Shown in pieces: positions 2,268-46,846 of a stretch of DNA of 64,000 nt. Location: assembly GCA_022599915.1 (NCBI GenBank), contig JAHZLH010000027.1, positions 73,813 through 137,812 on the forward strand, written 5' to 3'. A program made the translations under genes and the position numbers. This stretch comes from Actinomycetes bacterium. GTDB lineage: Bacteria; Actinomycetota; Actinomycetes; S36-B12; GCA-2699445. The notes beneath the pieces were generated by a model. It ran no database searches. It was not told where the DNA came from and saw nothing but the letters and a program-made list of their open reading frames with translations. How positions within the stretch are numbered: position 1 is the first letter of the stretch; each line of letters begins with the position of its first letter.

Positions 2268-3314
2268 GTGGTTGTCGTCATGCACGCCACTGCCGAAAAC
2301 GCAGAAATCGACGCTGTCGTGGCTCGAGTGGTCGAAGCTGGCGGGGAAGCTTTTGTCTCCCGCGGTGAAAGCCGCACCATCATCGGACTGATCGGAGACC
2401 TGGAGCAGTTCGCCGATCTGCAGCTCGCCGGCATGCCCGGAGTTGCCGAGACGGTTCGGATTTCTACCCCATTCAAGTTGGTATCCCGGGATCATCATCC
2501 TGACCGGTCGACAGTGTGGGTCGGACAAGGCGAATATCGGGTGCCTGTCGGCCCCGGGGTGCTCTCTGTCATGGCTGGCCCATGTGCGGTAGAGACCCCA
2601 GAGCAGACCCTAGAGTCTGCTCAACTGGCCCAAGCGTTGGGTGCCACGATCTTGCGCGGCGGAGCCTACAAGCCACGCACCTCGCCCTACGCTTTCCAAG
2701 GTCTCGGCAAATCCGGACTGCAGATCTTGTCAGAGGTTCGCGCCGAGACTGGTTTGCCTATCGTGACCGAAGTCGTGGATCCGGCAGATGTGGCTGTAGT
2801 GGCCGAGTACTCCGACATGCTGCAAATCGGGACCCGCAACATGGCCAACTTTGGGCTGCTACAAGCCGCTGGTAGCGCGGGCAAGCCGGTACTGCTCAAG
2901 CGCGGGATGAGCGCCACGATCGAGGAGTGGTTGATGGCGGCGGAGTACATCGCGCAGCGGGGAAACTTGGACATCGTGCTATGTGAGCGAGGCATCCGCA
3001 CCTTCGAGACGGCTACCCGCAATACCCTGGATGTGTCCGCGGTCCCCGTTGCCCAAAAGTTGTCCCATCTACCAGTAGTCATCGACCCCAGTCACTCTGG
3101 CGGCAAACGCGAGTTGGTGCGACCGCTATCTCGGGCGGCGGTGGCAGTGGGGGCCGACGGGTTGTTGATTGATGTGCACCCACATCCGGAAATCGCACTG
3201 GTGGACGGAGCACAGGCCTTGGCAGCAGCCGATCTCCCCGAACTAACGCATGAGTTAACAACGCTGGCAACTGCCATGGGCCGCAGCTACCTCGATAACG
3301 CCGTTCGCGGCTAG
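2268..3314 (+). CDS. 3-deoxy-7-phosphoheptulose (DAHP) synthase, type I-beta, with N-terminal ferredoxin/ACT-like regulatory domain
   Basis: GTG start 5 nt after GGAGGA. The catalytic part reads AGPCAVE..LRGGAYKPRTSPYAFQGLG..VTEV..IGTRNM..KRG..DPSH, the KDO8P/DAHPS I-beta pattern. About 80 aa of extra N-terminal domain precede it. Confidence 0.9.
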   Translation: MVVVMHATAENAEIDAVVARVVEAGGEAFVSRGESRTIIGLIGDLEQFADLQLAGMPGVAETVRISTPFKLVSRDHHPDRSTVWVGQGEYRVPVGPGVLSVMAGPCAVETPEQTLESAQLAQALGATILRGGAYKPRTSPYAFQGLGKSGLQILSEVRAETGLPIVTEVVDPADVAVVAEYSDMLQIGTRNMANFGLLQAAGSAGKPVLLKRGMSATIEEWLMAAEYIAQRGNLDIVLCERGIRTFETATRNTLDVSAVPVAQKLSHLPVVIDPSHSGGKRELVRPLSRAAVAVGADGLLIDVHPHPEIALVDGAQALAAADLPELTHELTTLATAMGRSYLDNAVRG

Positions 3315-3392: not shown

Positions 3393-4718
3393 CTAGTCAC
3401 TGGCCAACATTTCGGCCACCATGAAGGCGAGCTCCAGTGACTGCTCCCGGTTCAACCGAGGATCACAGGCCGTCTCGTAGCGGTCCGCCAGGTCGGTTTC
3501 CGCGACTCCCTCGGTACCACCGATGCATTCGGTAACGTCATCGCCGGTCAACTCCACGTGCAGCCCACCCGGGTGGGTAGCCAAACTGCGATGCACGGCG
3601 AAGAAGTCCCGCACCTCTGATACGACATCATCAAATAGCCGAGTCTTGTAGCCCGACGGCGCTTCCTTGGTATTGCCATGCATCGGGTCGCATACCCACA
3701 CCACTGGCAGCCCAGCGGAGGTGACGGCCGATACCAACTGCGGCAACCGATCTTGCACGTTGGCCGCACCCAGACGGGTGATCAGTGTGAGCCGACCGGG
3801 AGTGCGGTGCGGATCCAGCGCCCGCACTAACTCAACAACCTCGTCTGGTTCCGCCGTGGGGCCGATCTTAACCCCAATCGGATTACTGATCCGGGAGGCA
3901 AAATCTACGTGCGCGCCGTCCAATTGCCGAGTGCGCTCGCCGATCCACAGGAAATGACCTGAAGACCCGTACACCTGTCCGCTTGATGGATCGATCCGAA
4001 CCAGTGACCGCTCGTAGTCCAACGACATGGCTTCATGGCCGACAAAGAACTCCACCCGACGGAACTCGGAATGTTCGGCACCGCATGCGTGCATAAAGTC
4101 CAACGCCCGCTGAATCTCGGCGGCCAACCGTTCGTAGCGCTGACCCGCGGGTGACTGACGGACAAAGTCTCGGTTCCAACTTTGCACCTGACGTAGGTCA
4201 GCACTGCCGTCTTGGGTGAAGGACCGGATGAAGTTGAGCGCGGCTGAGCTGGCTTGGTAGACCTGCAGCATCCGGCGCGGATCGGGCCGGCGAGAGGTCG
4301 GTTCGAAGGGCAGTTGATTGACTGCGTCGCCGTAGTACGACGGTAGTTCCACCCCATCGCGATTCTCGACCGGCTTGCTGCGCGGCTTGAAGTACTGACC
4401 GGCCATCCGACCGATCTTGACCACCGGCAACGAGCCACCGTAGGTGAGGATGACCGCCATCTGCAGCACCGTACGCAGCCGCGACTGCAACGAAGTGGCG
4501 GTATTGGCACCAAAAGTCTCGGCGCAGTCTCCCGCGGTGAGTACGAAGGATTCGCCACGCTCCACTGAAGCGAGCCGTTGCGTCAGCAGCCCACAGTCAC
4601 CCGCATGGACGAGCCCGGGCGTTTGCGCGAGCAGTCGGGAGACTTCCAACACCTCGTCCTGATCCGGCCACGGAATGGCTTGGGCAATCGGACGGGTGTC
4701 CCATTCGATAGTGGACAC
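3393..4718 (-). CDS. 3-deoxy-7-phosphoheptulose (DAHP) synthase, class II (plant/actinobacterial type)
   Basis: 441 aa. The N-terminus (..PIAQAIPWPD..EVSRLLAQTPGLV..), then GDCAE, KIGRMAGQYFKPRS, WIGERTR, DPMHGNT, and the overall length match class II DAHPS. Confidence 0.92.
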   Translation of the reverse strand: MSTIEWDTRPIAQAIPWPDQDEVLEVSRLLAQTPGLVHAGDCGLLTQRLASVERGESFVLTAGDCAETFGANTATSLQSRLRTVLQMAVILTYGGSLPVVKIGRMAGQYFKPRSKPVENRDGVELPSYYGDAVNQLPFEPTSRRPDPRRMLQVYQASSAALNFIRSFTQDGSADLRQVQSWNRDFVRQSPAGQRYERLAAEIQRALDFMHACGAEHSEFRRVEFFVGHEAMSLDYERSLVRIDPSSGQVYGSSGHFLWIGERTRQLDGAHVDFASRISNPIGVKIGPTAEPDEVVELVRALDPHRTPGRLTLITRLGAANVQDRLPQLVSAVTSAGLPVVWVCDPMHGNTKEAPSGYKTRLFDDVVSEVRDFFAVHRSLATHPGGLHVELTGDDVTECIGGTEGVAETDLADRYETACDPRLNREQSLELAFMVAEMLASD

Positions 4719-38168: not shown

Positions 38169-38372
38169 ATGGCTTGGACATGGCAGTATCTGTCGGCAGA
38201 GGGCAAGGCAATGACACCTGCGGCTGGCGACCTGGATTTTCCGAATCAGTCGGATGCTGAGAGTTGGCTGGGGGAAACCTGGCGGGAACTGCGAGAACAA
38301 GGGGTTTCGTCAGTGACGCTGCTAGAGGACACTCGCGAGGTCTACGGGCCGATGTCGCTGTTCGAGCAATAG
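38169..38372 (+). CDS. small hypothetical protein (67 aa)
   Basis: The composition is protein-like (MAWTWQYLSAEGKAM..SDAESWLGETWRELREQGVSSVTLLEDTREVYGPMSL). No family recognised. Confidence 0.5.
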   Translation: MAWTWQYLSAEGKAMTPAAGDLDFPNQSDAESWLGETWRELREQGVSSVTLLEDTREVYGPMSLFEQ

Positions 38373-38435: not shown

Positions 38436-39419
38436 CTACGAGGAACGACGGCGATAGCGCAGTAGGAACCATCCCGCTAATCCCGCCACCAGCACCAGCG
38501 CGATCACCGCAAGTGGCGACGGCCCAGTTGATCGGCTGACCTGACCGGTTTGCACCGCAGCAGCGTTCGATTCGATGTCTGCTGGCGGGGAAGTATTCGG
38601 CGACGCTGCCCCAGTCTCACTGGAGTCAGGCGTGGAACTCGGTGAGCGCTTGTCATTGTCGCTAGCCGTTGGTCGCGACGACTTCTTGCCCTTACTAGCT
38701 GATGGGGACGGAGCAGTCGAGGCAACCGATCCCGACGGCGTCTGCTTCGGACCGCTAAGAGTCGGGGTGGCGTTGGGGCTATCGGCACCGCCGGACTTCT
38801 CGTTCTGTTGCTTGTCCGTTCGCTCTTTCTTCTTGTCTTTCGAACCAGTCGGATCGGTTGGTGAGGTCGCCGGTGCCGCACCCTTCGGTGAAGTGGTGGC
38901 TGATGGTTGGTCACTGACCGCGGGAGCGCACTCGCCCTGCGGATAGCCGTTGATGGCGCAGATCAGACCGCCCTCAACTCGGATTTCACTCACCTGTTGC
39001 AGCACCTGACCGCCGGTGTTGTTCTCGGGTAGTTGTGCACATCCACCGGTTGCAGCTGACGGATTTTGCCCAGCGGGCGCGTCGCCGGCTCCTCCGTAGT
39101 CAATGACGACCGCAACTCGCTTCATCCCACTGGCAGCGGGAACGTCAGCACAGAACTGCTGGAACGCGACCGCAGGTGCGATGGTGGGTTCCGCGCCCTG
39201 ACCACCAACCCCAGCACTCACGGCGAACCGCCACCCTTCCACCGCACCGTCAGCCGGGACGGCAGAAGACGGGCCCACCGGCGAAAATGTCCACGCCTGC
39301 CCGGCACCACTCCAGTAGGTCCAATAGCGGTAGTTCGTTGCCTGCGCGCTGGCAGTGCCGAGGATGCCGCCCATCAGCAGCATCGCAACGGCAACCGCTA
39401 GCGCACGAGCCCGGGTCAC
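38436..39419 (-). CDS. secreted, C-terminally membrane-anchored protein: about 135-aa Cys-containing globular domain plus long Ser/Pro/Thr/Lys-rich linker
   Basis: GTG start overlaps the upstream stop (GTGA). Signal peptide ..LLMGGILGTASAQA, a low-complexity linker of about 120 aa, and a final TM helix LAVIALVLVAGLAGWFLL followed by RYRRRSS. Confidence 0.8.
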   Translation of the reverse strand: MTRARALAVAVAMLLMGGILGTASAQATNYRYWTYWSGAGQAWTFSPVGPSSAVPADGAVEGWRFAVSAGVGGQGAEPTIAPAVAFQQFCADVPAASGMKRVAVVIDYGGAGDAPAGQNPSAATGGCAQLPENNTGGQVLQQVSEIRVEGGLICAINGYPQGECAPAVSDQPSATTSPKGAAPATSPTDPTGSKDKKKERTDKQQNEKSGGADSPNATPTLSGPKQTPSGSVASTAPSPSASKGKKSSRPTASDNDKRSPSSTPDSSETGAASPNTSPPADIESNAAAVQTGQVSRSTGPSPLAVIALVLVAGLAGWFLLRYRRRSS

Positions 39420-40486
39420 TGCAGCGAAGCCTTCAACTGTTTCACCAGATTCACACCACCGAACTTCTTGGGGTTTTCATTGGTCGCACCAGCCACCAGC
39501 AACAGCGTTCCCAGCGCACCGGCATCCGGCTGACCATCGGTTTCGGTGTAGACGGGTGCCTCATCCTGCAACGCAGCCAGGGCAGCCTTCACCTGCTTGC
39601 CATACCGATCGGAAGACTTAAACGCCAACAGCGCATAGGCAGTGGCCGAAGAGTCGACCCCGTCACCGAAACTGCTGGGCAGCATTCCGTCGTTCTTCTT
39701 CAACTGCTTCTTCAGCGATGCCAACAGGCCGCCCACGAGTTTAGGCTTGCTGGCCTCCTCGCCGCACTTGATCGCACCGCCATCGCTGGCCTGTGCAGTC
39801 GCAGCCACTGGCAACTGTGTCAGCAGTCCCAACGCACCCTGAGCGGACGCGAGCAGGTTGGCACTCTTCGGGCTCTTCTGATAGGACAGCTGCCCCCGGG
39901 CACTCTTTCCTGCCTCGCAGCGCAACTGCGTCTTCTTGAGGAACTTCTTGCCCTGCTTCAGAGCCTGCTTATTGTTGTCGGAAACCCGCGAACCGCGAAT
40001 GGCAGCCAGGGCCAGGCCGGTGCTGTTGGCGTCGCTGAGACCACCACCGATGTAAGGGAAACCACCATCAGGGTTTTGCACCTCTCGAAGCCAGGCAACC
40101 GCACGCTTGCTCGGCTTACTCTTACCGACCACTGCCAGCGCCATGGCCGCCATCGCGGTGGAGTTAGTATCCGGTCCGGTAAAAGCCTCCGGATCACCCG
40201 GGTCACAAGCAGCCAAGAGGTCATTCCGATATGCCTGGAAGGAACCGTCACCGCATTGCTGATTGCTCAGCCACGTCACCGAGGAATCCGGCACCTTGCG
40301 GTCTACCGCAACCATGCCGGATATCGCCAGCCCCTGGCGGTACACGCCGTCGAAGGACGGATCCTGCACACCGAAGCGGCCAGCGTCATCCTCTTCGGCA
40401 GTAGGAACGGCGGAGGCCGCGGGCATTAACGCCCCAGTTCCCAGCGCTAGTACGGCGGCAGCAGCCACCAGTGAACGTCGAATCAT
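39416..40486 (-). CDS. secreted prenyltransferase/squalene-oxidase-repeat (alpha/alpha toroid-like) protein
   Basis: ATG 40486 lies just after GGGAGGGA. Signal peptide MIRRSLVAAAAVLALGTGALMPAASA. Repeats QQCGDGSFQ, QNPDGGFPY and KNDGMLPSSFG are typical of terpenoid-cyclase/prenyltransferase repeats. Confidence 0.8.
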   Translation of the reverse strand: MIRRSLVAAAAVLALGTGALMPAASAVPTAEEDDAGRFGVQDPSFDGVYRQGLAISGMVAVDRKVPDSSVTWLSNQQCGDGSFQAYRNDLLAACDPGDPEAFTGPDTNSTAMAAMALAVVGKSKPSKRAVAWLREVQNPDGGFPYIGGGLSDANSTGLALAAIRGSRVSDNNKQALKQGKKFLKKTQLRCEAGKSARGQLSYQKSPKSANLLASAQGALGLLTQLPVAATAQASDGGAIKCGEEASKPKLVGGLLASLKKQLKKNDGMLPSSFGDGVDSSATAYALLAFKSSDRYGKQVKAALAALQDEAPVYTETDGQPDAGALGTLLLVAGATNENPKKFGGVNLVKQLKASLQ

Positions 40487-40488
40487 GA

Positions 40489-42355
<1,867 letters not shown>

Positions 42356-42359
<4 letters not shown>

Positions 42360-43450
42360 TTACCCCACAACTACCCGGTCCCGATGCTGAGCAACGGACT
42401 GAGACCGAGAGTTACCTCGACCGACTCACCAAACCTCCGGGCTCACTAGGGAGACTGGAACAGCTGGCGGTCTGGGCTGCCGGAGTACAAGAACGCACAC
42501 CACCACTGCCATTTCAGCAGGTTCGTCTCGTCATCTTCGCTGGCGACCACGGTGTTGCTCGCGCCGCTGGCACCTCTGCTTTCCCCAGCGAAGTCACCGC
42601 ACAAATGGTGGCCAACTTTCACAACGGCGGCGCTGCCGCGAACGTACTAGCGGAACGCAACGGAGCCACCGTGCGGGTGATCGACGCGGCTGTGGATTCT
42701 GACTACGAGGGTCTGCCCGTCCCGACCGACGTAGCCAAACACCGGATCCGCCGGAGTAGCGGCCCGCTGGATCGCGAGGATGCGCTGACCCGAGAAGAAG
42801 CCGAGGCCGCGCTAGAACTTGGGCGCAACATCGCAGATGAGGAAATCGACTCCGGCGCGGATCTGCTCATCGCCGGCGATATGGGTATCGGGAACACCAC
42901 CCCCGCCGCTGCACTCATCGCAGGTATTACCGGATCCGACCCAGTCTCGGTCTGTGGCCGCGGCACCGGAATCGATGACGAGACCTGGATGCGAAAAGTG
43001 GCCGCGATCCGCGACGGCTTGTGGCGTGCCCGAGATTGGCGCCCCGACCCGGTGGCGTTGCTGGCGACCGTCGGTGGCGCTGACCTGGGCGCCATGGCGG
43101 GTTTCCTCGGCCGGGCAGCCCAGCGCGGCGTACCGGCGCTATTGGACGGTGTGGTGGTGGGAGCCGCCGCTTTGCTGGCGGAGCGGATTGACCACGGCGC
43201 CCGCCGGTGGTGGTTGGCTGGACACCAGTCGGCTGAACCGGCTCATGTCATCTGCCTAGATCACCTGGATCTCGAGCCGCTGCTCACGCTGTCTATGCGC
43301 CTCGGCGAGGGATCGGGCGCCCTGACCGCGCTGCCCATTCTGCAGGCTGCACTTGCAACCGCCAGTGAGATGGCTACCTTCGATCAAGCCGGGGTTGATG
43401 ATGGCTCCGCGCCCCCGCCCGGGGAGGTCGATCCGGAGGACCTGCCATGA
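42356..43450 (+). CDS. cobT: nicotinate-nucleotide--dimethylbenzimidazole phosphoribosyltransferase
   Basis: GTG 42356 lies 5 nt after GGAGGA and overlaps the cobU stop (GTGA). Motifs LTKPPGSLGRLE, GDMGIGNTT and RLGEGSGA. Confidence 0.93.
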
Positions 43451-44253
43451 CTCAGACGCTGCGATTGTCGCTAGGCATGTTCACTATTCTTCCCGTGGCG
43501 CCTCGTGGCGAGTTCCGGCCGACACCCCGGCAAATCCGCGGCATGATCCTGCTGGCTCCCTTGGTCGGCTTACTGATTGGCTTGGCACTAGCCGCCGCAC
43601 TGTTCCTGATCCGCGAAGGAGCCAAGTGGCTGCACGGCGGCACCGAGCATGTCCCCGGCAACAGCCTGGCGGCGTTACTGACCATCGGGTTGTTAGTACT
43701 CATCACCGGCGGCCTACACCTAGACGGTCTCGCCGACACCGTCGACGCTATGGCCTGCCACAAGGATCGAGCCGGGGCACTGCAAGTGATGCGGCGGTCC
43801 GATGTGGGACCCCTCGGTGTGGTGGCGGTTGTGATGGTGCTGCTGATTCAGGTCCTGGCACTGGCAGTTGCCCTCGACTACGGCCACGGGGCCGTCGCAA
43901 TCGTGACCGCAGTTGTCGCGGGTCGGTTAGCGGCTGTTTGGGCTTGTCGACTTCCTGCGGCGCGTCCTGACGGTCAAGGCTCCTGGGTCGCTCGCTCGAC
44001 GAATGCGGTTCAGGCCACCATCGTGACGATACTGTCGCTGCTGATTCCGCTTGGCCTCATGTTCGTCAACCACGATCCATCCCGGATTTCACTGATCCTG
44101 GCGTTGGCAGCTATTCCTGCTGGGCTGATCGTCACCGGGTTGCTGCAGCGATGGTGGGCACATCGCTTTGGCGGCATCACCGGCGACACCATCGGTGCCG
44201 GCGTCGAAGTCTGCACGGCGGTCACATTAATCGTGATTGCGCTCGCTCCGTAA
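43447..44253 (+). CDS. cobS: adenosylcobinamide-GDP ribazoletransferase (cobalamin 5'-phosphate synthase)
   Basis: Polytopic membrane protein with GGLHLDGLADTVDA and FGGITGD motifs. ATGA overlap with cobT. Confidence 0.92.
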   Translation: MTQTLRLSLGMFTILPVAPRGEFRPTPRQIRGMILLAPLVGLLIGLALAAALFLIREGAKWLHGGTEHVPGNSLAALLTIGLLVLITGGLHLDGLADTVDAMACHKDRAGALQVMRRSDVGPLGVVAVVMVLLIQVLALAVALDYGHGAVAIVTAVVAGRLAAVWACRLPAARPDGQGSWVARSTNAVQATIVTILSLLIPLGLMFVNHDPSRISLILALAAIPAGLIVTGLLQRWWAHRFGGITGDTIGAGVEVCTAVTLIVIALAP

Positions 44254-44555
44254 TCCTGCCCGGTGCACACGAGCCACCGCCCACTAACGACAAATCACCG
44301 CGCGGTGCTGCGCCCTTCGACATGCACGCTAACCCCACCAATCCTGGCTGTGAGGAGCCTCACAGCAGAGCAGGTTTAGCGTCGGGCGACTGTGGCGATA
44401 CCTGCCACGGGTTCAACAGAAATCGAACTCGTAGGCCTCGGAAAGTCCGAGACCAGGAGACACCGACATAGGTAGGTGGTGAGCCAAGCAGCAGCGTTGC
44501 TGGGCTGTCCGTCTGTTTGCCGATGTCTCGCGTTATTTCCTGGAGGGAAAGAACA

Positions 44556-45614
44556 ATGAAGACAAGCACAGTGATGGCCACCGGTATGAGCGGCCTACTC
44601 CTCGCCGGATTGGTGGGAACGGCCGTACCAGCCATGGCCGCTGATAGTTCAACGGCCGCTGTCGGAGACAGCTCAGTGTCCGCCGCAGTGGCGGGCAAGA
44701 CGTACCAGAAATCACGCGTCGTGAATTTCCACGCAAACAAGGAGAATTCCACGCCTGGCCAAACCATCAAACTGCGTGGCCGGGTAGCCCACAACCACCA
44801 CCGGCACACTCGCGTGGTCATTCAGAAGCAGCTGGACAGCGGAAACTGGAAGAAGGTCAGCAAGACCTTTACCAAGCGGAATGGTCATTTTGTGGCCAAG
44901 AAAGCTTTCCGTCATGACGGTGACTTCACACTTCGCGCTAAATCTCAGGGACGCCACTTCAGTGAGGAGATCGGAGTTAGTGTTGCCAGCCCGACTCCAC
45001 CCGATAACAGCCAGATCTACGTCACCGCTGGAGATACCCAGGCATTGTTGGACGCGATTAACACTGCGCCGGACGGGGCCACTTTGTACCTGAATGGCAC
45101 GTACAACGTAACTACCACTACGGACGCCAGCGGCTGGGACGCCGGTGTGGTGATCGGCAAGAACCTCACCTTGGCTGGTGGCACCATTCAGTCCGACGGC
45201 ACCGATAACGTGATTTCAGTGCACAAGGGCGTCACGCTGACTTTGGATGATGGCATCAACATCACCGGTGGCTACGCCGGCCAGGGTGGCGGCATCTGGA
45301 ACCTCGGCACTGTAGTCGTCAACGATGCCTACATCTGGGGTAATGAAGCTGATCAAGGTGCTGGCGTCTACAACAAAGCGGGCGCAACCTTCACTCTGAA
45401 CGGTGGCCGGATCGACAAGAACACTGCCAACATCGCTGGCGGCGGCATCGACAACAAGGGAACGGTTTACCTGAACGACGGTGCCATCACCCAGAACACC
45501 TCAAAGGGTAACTATGGCGGGATCGTGTCAGATGGACAGGTGTTCAATGCTGACGGTCAACTCATCACGAGCTCCTCGCTGGTATTCGACAACTCCACCG
45601 ATATCTGGGGCTAG
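44556..45614 (+). CDS. secreted protein with basic Ig-like N-domain and right-handed parallel beta-helix repeats
   Basis: ATG 44556 follows GGAGGGA. Signal peptide ..LVGTAVPAMAADSS. The C-terminal half carries about 22-aa repeats of the type N..GG.A..GGGI.N.G (GGYAGQGGGIWNLGTVVVND.. / NIAGGGIDNKGTVYLND..). Confidence 0.75.
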   Translation: MKTSTVMATGMSGLLLAGLVGTAVPAMAADSSTAAVGDSSVSAAVAGKTYQKSRVVNFHANKENSTPGQTIKLRGRVAHNHHRHTRVVIQKQLDSGNWKKVSKTFTKRNGHFVAKKAFRHDGDFTLRAKSQGRHFSEEIGVSVASPTPPDNSQIYVTAGDTQALLDAINTAPDGATLYLNGTYNVTTTTDASGWDAGVVIGKNLTLAGGTIQSDGTDNVISVHKGVTLTLDDGINITGGYAGQGGGIWNLGTVVVNDAYIWGNEADQGAGVYNKAGATFTLNGGRIDKNTANIAGGGIDNKGTVYLNDGAITQNTSKGNYGGIVSDGQVFNADGQLITSSSLVFDNSTDIWG

Positions 45615-46627: not shown

Positions 46628-46700
46628 TAGCCCCGACGGGATTCGAACCCGCGCTACCGCCTTGAGAGGGCGGCGTGCTAGGCCGCTACACAACGGGGCC
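46628..46700 (-). tRNA. tRNA-Glu (anticodon CTC)
   Basis: The minus strand GGCCCCGTTGTGTAGCGGCCTAGCACGCCGCCCTCTCAAGGCGGTAGCGCGGGTTCGAATCCCGTCGGGGCTA folds as a cloverleaf. The anticodon loop is CT-CTC-AA and the T-loop is TTCGAAT. Confidence 0.93.
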
Positions 46701-46774: not shown

Positions 46775-46846
46775 CTGGGGTACCAGGACTCGAACCTAGA
46801 ACAACTGAACCAGAATCAGCCGTGTTGCCAATTACACCATACCCCA
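46775..46846 (-). tRNA. tRNA-Gln (anticodon CTG)
   Basis: The minus strand TGGGGTATGGTGTAATTGGCAACACGGCTGATTCTGGTTCAGTTGTTCTAGGTTCGAGTCCTGGTACCCCAG has a U1-A72 acceptor, anticodon loop TT-CTG-GT and T-loop TTCGAGT. Confidence 0.93.

Follow-up and report, generated by a model that had tools for sequence, protein, structure and literature searches.

What two exported proteins encoded behind a cobalamin riboswitch may do for the cell is the question raised by the locus discussed here, which was found in a stretch of 64,000 nucleotides (hereafter the window, 64 kb in its full length) of contig JAHZLH010000027.1 from the Actinomycetes bacterium assembly GCA_022599915.1. The locus comprises the riboswitch, the gene for a secreted alpha6/alpha6 toroid protein (P1) and the gene for a protein (P2) whose small globular domain is connected by a long stalk to a transmembrane (TM) anchor. 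A sequence-only reading of the same DNA had proposed the pair to be a split, wall-spanning analogue of the vitamin B12 carriers transcobalamin (TC) and intrinsic factor (IF) that captures corrinoids at the cell surface. By taking into account the protein families of P1 and P2, the operons in which they are found in other Actinobacteria and the natural fusions between their domains, the two proteins are probably an extracytoplasmic device for corrinoid binding or capture. That the corrinoid would be clamped between toroid and small domain, as in TC, is put forward tentatively, as a possibility that falls short of being probable.

The riboswitch and the two coupled genes

An Rfam covariance-model scan identified the aptamer (40595-40680, minus strand) as a cobalamin riboswitch of the adenosylcobalamin-II (AdoCbl-II) class (RF01689), matched over the full model (positions 1-81) with 43.4 bits, above the gathering score of 36.5, and an E-value of 4.3e-7. 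It belongs to the 5' leader and is separated by 108 nt from the start codon of P1, and the intervening expression platform (40487-40594, minus strand) contains the Shine-Dalgarno sequence GGGAGGG (40496-40490). A terminator scan of the minus strand found no intrinsic terminator in the leader (40487-40594), so that translational control is the likelier, and we consider it a likely, mode of action of the riboswitch on P1 and P2; the minimum free energy fold of the leader is undistinctive (z = -0.41). As read directly from the sequence, the P1 reading frame runs from ATG 40486 to TGA 39418-39416 and that of P2 from GTG 39419 to 38436, both on the minus strand, with start and stop codons overlapping in the tetranucleotide GTGA (39416-39419). 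The initial description of a riboswitch ahead of two translationally coupled genes was, therefore, correct.

P1 (39416-40486, minus strand; 356 amino acids (aa)) has an N-terminus that resembles a Sec-type signal peptide (..PAASA/VP), carries the motifs QQCGDGSFQ and QNPDGGFPY and gives weak matches to SQHop_cyclase_C, Prenyltrans and TED. Its AlphaFold model (pLDDT 91.7) contains 12 helices arranged as an alpha6/alpha6 toroid, in full agreement with the signal peptide and the prenyltransferase/squalene-oxidase-type repeats recognized earlier. No TM or LPXTG anchor is present in its tail. P1 matches NCBIfam NF053823 (SCO2321 family membrane protein, equivalog) over positions 6-353 of 405 with a score of 204 bits, which falls short of the cutoff (300) because the C-terminal anchor region is absent; judged by this profile, it is a clear SCO2321 homologue and not an equivalog. 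Four cysteines (78, 94, 190 and 241) are conserved in P1 and four in P2, which would fit the presence of disulfides outside the cytoplasm. A thioester (TED-like) role of the QQCGDG segment was considered and set aside by inference, since C78 and C94 are both invariant and, with a spacing of 16 residues, suggestive of a disulfide, and since a CxEQ motif is absent.

P2 (38436-39419, minus strand; 327 aa) consists of a signal peptide (aa 1-25; 39419-39345), a globular domain with four cysteines (aa 27-170, about 145 aa; 39341-38910), a Ser/Pro/Thr/Lys stalk (aa 171-300; 38909-38520), in which Ser, Pro and Thr make up 46% of the residues, and a TM anchor followed by RYRRRSS (aa 301-327; 38519-38439), all on the minus strand. 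The AlphaFold model shows an N-terminal signal helix, the domain at residues 30-170 with pLDDT >90, disorder at 171-300 and a TM helix at 302-326. All the parts initially described were found again, with a stalk of about 130 aa instead of about 120. P2 is a member of NCBIfam NF040672 (SCO2322 family; 150.7 bits, cutoff 85, positions 1-143 of 144), to which Pfam PF28005, precomputed on the identical protein, corresponds. The invariant residues of P2 are W33, Y35, W43, G62, W63, C90, C127, C154 and C164. The notion that the pair is unlike any known family did not hold, since both proteins match curated NCBIfam/Pfam families, for which a function is not assigned, and which are usually encoded inside operons for energy-coupling factor (ECF) transporters.

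Operon context across Actinobacteria

A scan of species-representative genomes for a P2 motif gave at least 303 confirmed loci, of which 80, many of them from Nanopelagicales, were fetched for context counts. In 71 of the 80, P2 is directly followed, after 0-400 nt (mostly <100 nt), by genes for EcfT (CbiQ), a fused EcfAA' and a PF12822 S component, that is, by a dedicated (group I) ECF operon of the kind missing from the window; 6 further loci end too early to judge the presence of ECF genes. CobT is often encoded next after the ECF genes. A P1 homologue is found immediately upstream of P2, overlapping or abutting it, in 57 of the 80 loci. Signal peptides and conserved cysteine pairs are found in both the P1 and the P2 families, and the anchors are of the TM or the LPXTG type. 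The profile of the actinobacterial S component matches none of the solved S components, CbrT included, and has no specific NCBIfam name.

A cobalamin-clan riboswitch (RF01689, RF01482 or RF00174) was detected at the gathering score directly 5' of the first gene of the operon in 21 of 28 loci. Of the seven loci without such a match, six were looked at again, and each of them shows an RF00174 match below the threshold (20-31 bits) in the expected position and on the expected strand; the seventh apart, the operon is headed by a cobalamin riboswitch in practically all the loci scanned. It had been stated that the corrinoid-capture proposal would fall if orthologous pairs never carried a B12 riboswitch, and the survey shows the opposite. 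The link to B12 and the surface location of the pair were correctly recognized from the window alone, which did not reveal that P1 and P2 are an accessory part of a five-gene ECF module, the ECF genes being absent here.

In the window and in its closest relatives (L001-L003, L086 and L087), riboswitch, P1 and P2 are kept without adjoining ECF genes. These relatives are marine and freshwater metagenome-assembled genomes, in which the identity of P2 decreases down to 44% and the asd-cobU-cobT-cobS neighbours are kept. Two gene orders are found in this ECF-less clade: that of the window, with the pair divergent from asd-cobU-cobT-cobS, and that of L002 and L003, in which riboswitch-P1-P2, a Beta-lactamase2-family gene and asd-cobU-cobT-cobS follow one another on one strand. 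The Beta-lactamase2-family gene (283-287 aa; L002 5920-6771, L003 8843-9706) is absent from the window. Conservation of the pair through rearrangement and divergence to 44% identity argues that the riboswitch-P1-P2 unit may well be under selection without an adjacent importer. All the informative ECF-less loci encode a P2 with a long stalk (278-296 mature residues, against mostly 190-230 elsewhere), although a long-stalk P2 also occurs in loci with ECF genes.

Another arrangement was observed at L091 (7768-9842), where a Cobalamin riboswitch (RF00174, 41.6 bits) immediately precedes the gene for P0201 (613 aa), a P1-like toroid joined to fn3 and to three SLH domains. The P0201 gene is an isolated one, without P2 or ECF genes in its vicinity. 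The gene that follows it, encoding 120 aa, was evaluated as a possible small-domain partner and rejected, as it is not such a domain. On the minus strand of L091 (3282-3488) there is also a tandem glycine riboswitch upstream of the gene for the glycine cleavage P-protein.

Fusions and circular permutations

Toroid and small domain also occur in one polypeptide. In P0226, P0191, P0199 and P0293 the toroid is followed by a C-terminal small domain of ~110 aa, while P0316, a sortase-anchored protein with two toroids, carries the small domain N-terminally. These natural fusions argue that P1 and P2 work together. The natural-order small domain is found, in addition, as a stand-alone secreted protein and as a signal peptide-domain-stalk-TM protein that occupies exactly the position of P2, after the toroid and before EcfT, behind a riboswitch. 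Out of 1.84 billion, 3,497 cluster representatives were matched by the small-domain profile with an E-value of 1e-3 or lower.

Compared with the natural-order domain, that of P2 is circularly permuted. Three hhalign matches between the two (natural-order residues 77-126 with P2 residues 8-55, P 7e-13; 30-73 with 108-146, P 0.007; 7-13 with 76-82, P 0.04) become colinear after rotation, and the alignment of an artificially rotated P2 with the C-terminus of P0226 extends over the junction (BLASTP, E 1e-12). The toroid is permuted too: residues 34-241 of P1 match residues 157-373 of the partner toroid of L092 (L092 2212-3333) with E 6e-40, and residues 258-354 of P1 match residues 54-150 of the same toroid with E 4e-7. 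Thus, as far as such alignments can tell, both toroid and small domain are permuted between the natural-order and the window-type operon variants. Both permutation forms of the small domain were seen in an expanded operon of Micromonospora (L088, 6582-14831) located behind a cobalamin riboswitch, where the gene order is toroid (346 aa), natural-order small domain (162 aa), a 494-aa protein, SCO2322-type P2 (320 aa), CbiQ, ABC and ECF S.

Relation to known systems

Proteins of this general kind have been described before. Burroughs, Balaji, Iyer and Aravind (2007; PMC1796856) described bacterial transcobalamin-like SLBB proteins, secreted or anchored, with an alpha/alpha toroid fused on either side, often accompanied by a second paralogue and encoded in CbiO/CbiQ operons of organisms without B12 synthesis, and predicted them to scavenge B12 or its precursors; Actinobacteria were not among the taxa listed, which were low-GC Gram-positives, planctomycetes and euryarchaea. 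A secreted or anchored small beta-rich domain, a toroid and ECF T and A genes are all seen in the window or in its family. The full combination with CbiQ/CbiO is found in the family, while the window has the toroid and no CbiQ/CbiO. This clade presumably corresponds to the later Pfam DUF4430. The actinobacterial domain differs from it in being unseen by the DUF4430 hidden Markov model, in the circular permutation of the SCO2322 form, in an anchor made of a long stalk and a TM helix and, for the window copy, in the lack of adjacent ECF genes.

Similarly, Lsa1836-1840 of Lactobacillus sakei comprise an ECF transporter and the separate proteins Lsa1839 (TC beta-like) and Lsa1840 (toroid) (bioRxiv 10.1101/864751). 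The likeness lies in the split two-gene toroid and small-domain pair with an ECF module, the latter being found in relatives of the window pair. The differences, in a comparison made by description only, are the proposed ligand, which is heme, a B12 riboswitch not being reported, and the homology to TC and haptocorrin (HC), which in L. sakei is detectable by HHpred and in the actinobacterial pair is marginal.

In mammalian TC, IF and HC (2BB5, 2PMV, 4KKI) an alpha6/alpha6 toroid and a beta domain of ~100 aa sandwich the cobalamin. The fusion proteins of the actinobacterial family share the mammalian order, with the toroid N-terminal and the small domain C-terminal, whereas P1 and P2 are separate polypeptides whose domains are permuted and which have a tether to the membrane. 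That a binder may be split has a precedent in IF, whose two proteolytic fragments reassemble around cobalamin.

As for the transporter, acI genomes without B12 synthesis encode an ECF module behind cobalamin riboswitches, which has been proposed to be a cobalamin transporter (Kang et al. 2017; PMC5301498). Relatives of the window pair resemble these acI modules, and ECF-CbrT of Lactobacillus delbrueckii, in having a cobalamin riboswitch ahead of a dedicated ECF module; they differ from ECF-CbrT in an S component whose profile does not match CbrT and in the addition of two extracytoplasmic proteins. By definition, ECF transporters work without extracytoplasmic binding proteins. Extracytoplasmic corrinoid capture under riboswitch control, ahead of a membrane transporter, is otherwise known from the surface lipoproteins BtuG and BtuH of Bacteroides and from BtuF. 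The analogy with these proteins is functional, their folds (beta-propeller, periplasmic binding protein) being unrelated, and they differ also in the lipid anchors, the Gram-negative envelope and the TonB/BtuCD transporters.

No literature was found on the function of SCO2321, SCO2322, SCO2321-2325 or DUF4430. Surface capture of corrinoids by a toroid and a small domain, as initially proposed, is thus sound in concept and not new in kind, given the prior proposals (PMC1796856; bioRxiv 10.1101/864751). What is new are the actinobacterial families, the permuted topology, the tether made of stalk and TM helix, the near-universal riboswitch control and the ECF-less clade.

Comparison with transcobalamin and evidence against corrinoid capture

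The relation of P2 to the TC family was evaluated with the beta domains of human TC, IF and HC and of bovine TC, whose sequences were verified against the PDB and aligned. In all hhalign comparisons the cognate C-terminal hairpin, 'YW..L...G...Y.P.dGe.ie', is picked, and the global alignment is colinear. For the two profiles with P-values of 0.0037 and 0.033, the observed score was reached by 0 of 150 and 0 of 100 column-shuffled controls. Furthermore, the AlphaFold model of P2, once de-permuted, has the order b-b-a-b-b-b-b-b plus one linking helix, which, as far as the sequential order of strands and helices goes, equals the published transcobalamin-like SLBB topology (beta-grasp, hairpin after the helix; PMC1796856). 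On the whole, a TC-like homology of the small domain is suggested by these comparisons.

Several results weigh against this relation, and against corrinoid capture more in general. The same hhalign comparisons of the small domain with the TC/IF/HC beta domains gave P-values of 0.09, 0.013, 0.0037 and 0.033 and HH probabilities of at most 9%. Foldseek found no relative of the P2 model in the PDB, the best E-value being 2.3 with a sequential aligner that is hampered by the permutation. PF14478 (DUF4430) gave no match at E up to 10 in P2, in de-permuted P2 or in 63 + 33 + 100 members of the family, nor was a Pfam match to Cobalamin_bind (PF01122) found in 60 family members. Profile and single-sequence searches of PDB sequences and Pfam gave no match to TC, IF or HC for P2, for the natural-order domain or for 100 further members. 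For P1, the hhalign score of the family with the TC alpha domain, 15.9, does not rise above the level of the null (14.2 +/- 2.8), and the family profile is far nearer to terpene cyclases (squalene-hopene cyclase, E 5e-26) than to TC alpha. The profile retrieved no TC, IF or HC chain from the PDB at E up to 10, and Foldseek gave generic toroid relatives and no TC among the top 50. Foldseek, which had been suggested for the comparison with TC and IF, thus gave no TC for P2 and none among the top 50 for P1, and what P1 has in common with the TC alpha domain is limited to the fold class of the alpha6/alpha6 toroid.

Genomic evidence also has to be set against corrinoid capture. The window and the 10 kb on each side of it contain housekeeping genes and no ECF, Btu or other corrinoid transporter (EcfT, EcfA and EcfS gave no tblastn match in the 64 kb and are not among the Pfam-annotated genes of the flanks), so that the hand-over of the ligand has no partner at this locus. 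In about 19 of the loci surveyed the riboswitch directly precedes P2 with no P1 in the operon, indicating that the toroid is dispensable. The module is also carried by B12 producers, e.g. Streptomyces and Thalassiella, and therefore a role other than the salvage of complete B12 is possible. Finally, for the split pair of L. sakei the proposed function is heme uptake (bioRxiv 10.1101/864751). Taken together, the idea of a split TC analogue stands as regards the link to B12, the surface site and the paired action of the two proteins; it is suggestive for the similarity between P2 and the beta domain and fails for a sequence relation between P1 and TC alpha.

Proposed mechanism and alternatives

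With corrinoid capture as the probable function of the pair, the following sequence of events can be envisaged. At low intracellular cobalamin the AdoCbl-II riboswitch would permit translation of the bicistronic mRNA. P1 would be exported by the Sec system as a soluble alpha/alpha toroid, and P2 would display its disulfide-bonded, beta-rich domain above the membrane anchor on the stalk of ~130 residues, predicted to be long enough to cross the wall. Together, P1 and P2 may bind corrinoids of the cobalamin or cobinamide type at or beyond the cell wall, and the ligand might be held between toroid and small domain as in IF and TC. The bound corrinoid would then be passed to a membrane importer, which in most actinobacteria would be the downstream EcfT-EcfAA'-EcfS and in the marine clade of the window would be encoded elsewhere in the genome. 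CobU, CobT and CobS would complete imported cobinamide to cobalamin.

An unlikely alternative is that P1 and P2 bind no ligand and are accessory proteins that stabilize, position or gate the ECF complex, or open a path through the wall, similar to the CbiN/NikK/NikL components of metal ECF systems. It would account for P2 being invariably the gene next to EcfT on its 5' side, the stop codon of the one often overlapping the start codon of the other, for the common occurrence of P2 and ECF genes without P1 and for the lack of a match between P2 and any recognized ligand-binding family. However, a clade that lacks adjacent ECF genes keeps both the pair and its riboswitch, the SLH-anchored P1-like toroid is preceded by a B12 riboswitch and has no P2 or ECF genes around it, and the long stalk would hold the P2 domain far from the membrane complex. 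We regard it as quite unlikely that the ligand is another compound of the B12 economy, such as the lower ligand or alpha-ribazole, cobalt, or a tetrapyrrole such as heme. The frequent adjacency of CobT, the control of cobalt transporters by B12 riboswitches (PMC3766115), the heme uptake proposed for the L. sakei pair and the presence of the module in B12 producers all speak in its favour. Yet the S component is of the PF12822 vitamin type and not CbiM/NikM, the acI bacteria keep the module though unable to use cobalt for B12 synthesis, the complete cobU-cobT-cobS set of the window clade points to import of a cobinamide-type corrinoid, and no heme-related context or regulation was seen.

The relationship of P1 with terpene cyclases raises, in turn, the question whether P1 is an extracellular toroid enzyme acting on terpenoids or glycans, with P2 as its anchor or substrate-binding partner and only an indirect link to the riboswitch. 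Besides the match to squalene-hopene cyclase given above, the top Foldseek matches of P1 are class II terpene cyclases (E 5e-9) and complement TED domains, with the glycoside hydrolase MmpH also present, and the homology with class II terpene cyclases, detected at the level of the repeats, is real. On the other hand, the DxDD motif that contains the general acid of the cyclases is replaced by D-T-N-S at residues 106-109 of P1 (PDVDDTA of squalene-hopene cyclase aligns with PDTNSTA of P1), with an Asn that is nearly invariant across the P1 family. The loss of DxDD and the export of P1 make terpenoid cyclase activity appear unlikely; the conserved terpenoid catalytic site that had been named as evidence able to refute corrinoid capture was not found. 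Moreover, a secreted P1 would be away from the isoprenoid diphosphate pools, and the context is uniformly one of ECF and cob genes. We consider an enzymatic role of P1 to be very improbable.

Neighbouring genes and other features of the window

The operon asd-cobU-cobT-cobS (40777-44253, plus strand), functionally linked to the pair though outside it, is divergent from P1 and P2. It comprises cobU (41796-42359), cobT (42356-43450) and cobS (43447-44253), all on the plus strand, and its genes bear the Pfam names Semialdhyde_dh, CobU, DBI_PRT and CobS on the identical contig. Its role is the assembly of the nucleotide loop and the salvage of cobinamide. No genes for making the corrin ring were found in the window or within 10 kb of its ends, and both the divergent neighbour and the absence of such genes in the window had been correctly noted before. 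The longest asd reading frame (409 aa), which is also the gene call of the public contig, starts at GTG 40570 (plus strand) and overlaps the riboswitch on the opposite strand. The canonical N-terminus, from ATG 40777, yields 340 aa as in L002, and the start at GTG 40570 is probably a mis-call.

A conserved open reading frame of 67 aa, MAWTWQYLSAEG... (38169-38372, plus strand), lacks a TM segment and is convergent with P2, facing its 3' end; the position of this frame is kept in L086, whose P2 is 44% identical. Just past cobS there is the gene for a secreted 365-aa protein (44517-45614, plus strand) with Gly/Asn/Thr-rich repeats and no Pfam match. Two 3-deoxy-D-arabinoheptulosonate 7-phosphate (DAHP) synthases are encoded by adjoining genes (2268-3314, plus strand; 3393-4718, minus strand), one being type I with a ferredoxin-like domain and the other class II. 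Two tRNA genes are present on the minus strand at 46628-46700 and 46775-46846 (Rfam, 60.4 and 58.0 bits).

Significance

The family to which the pair belongs is large (at least 303 species genomes recovered by a single pattern scan; ~3,500 protein clusters) and includes key planktonic Actinobacteria. Lakes and oceans contain little B12 (picomolar levels), and the majority of aquatic bacteria depend on its import. It is conceivable, though doubtful when taken as a whole, that the SCO2321/SCO2322 pair and its natural-order siblings (~3,500 clusters at 50% identity) are the long-missing high-affinity extracellular B12 binders of the Actinobacteria, including the abundant freshwater acI and marine lineages, that they are circularly permuted relatives of TC and IF, and that in the clade of the window they form a free-standing capture device that feeds a different transporter. 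If corrinoid binding by the pair is true, extracytoplasmic receptors would have to be added to the ECF paradigm, a bacterial and permuted counterpart of TC and IF would be at hand, and new genomic markers for corrinoid scavenging would become available, while the existence of one more corrinoid transporter would be indicated by the ECF-less clade.

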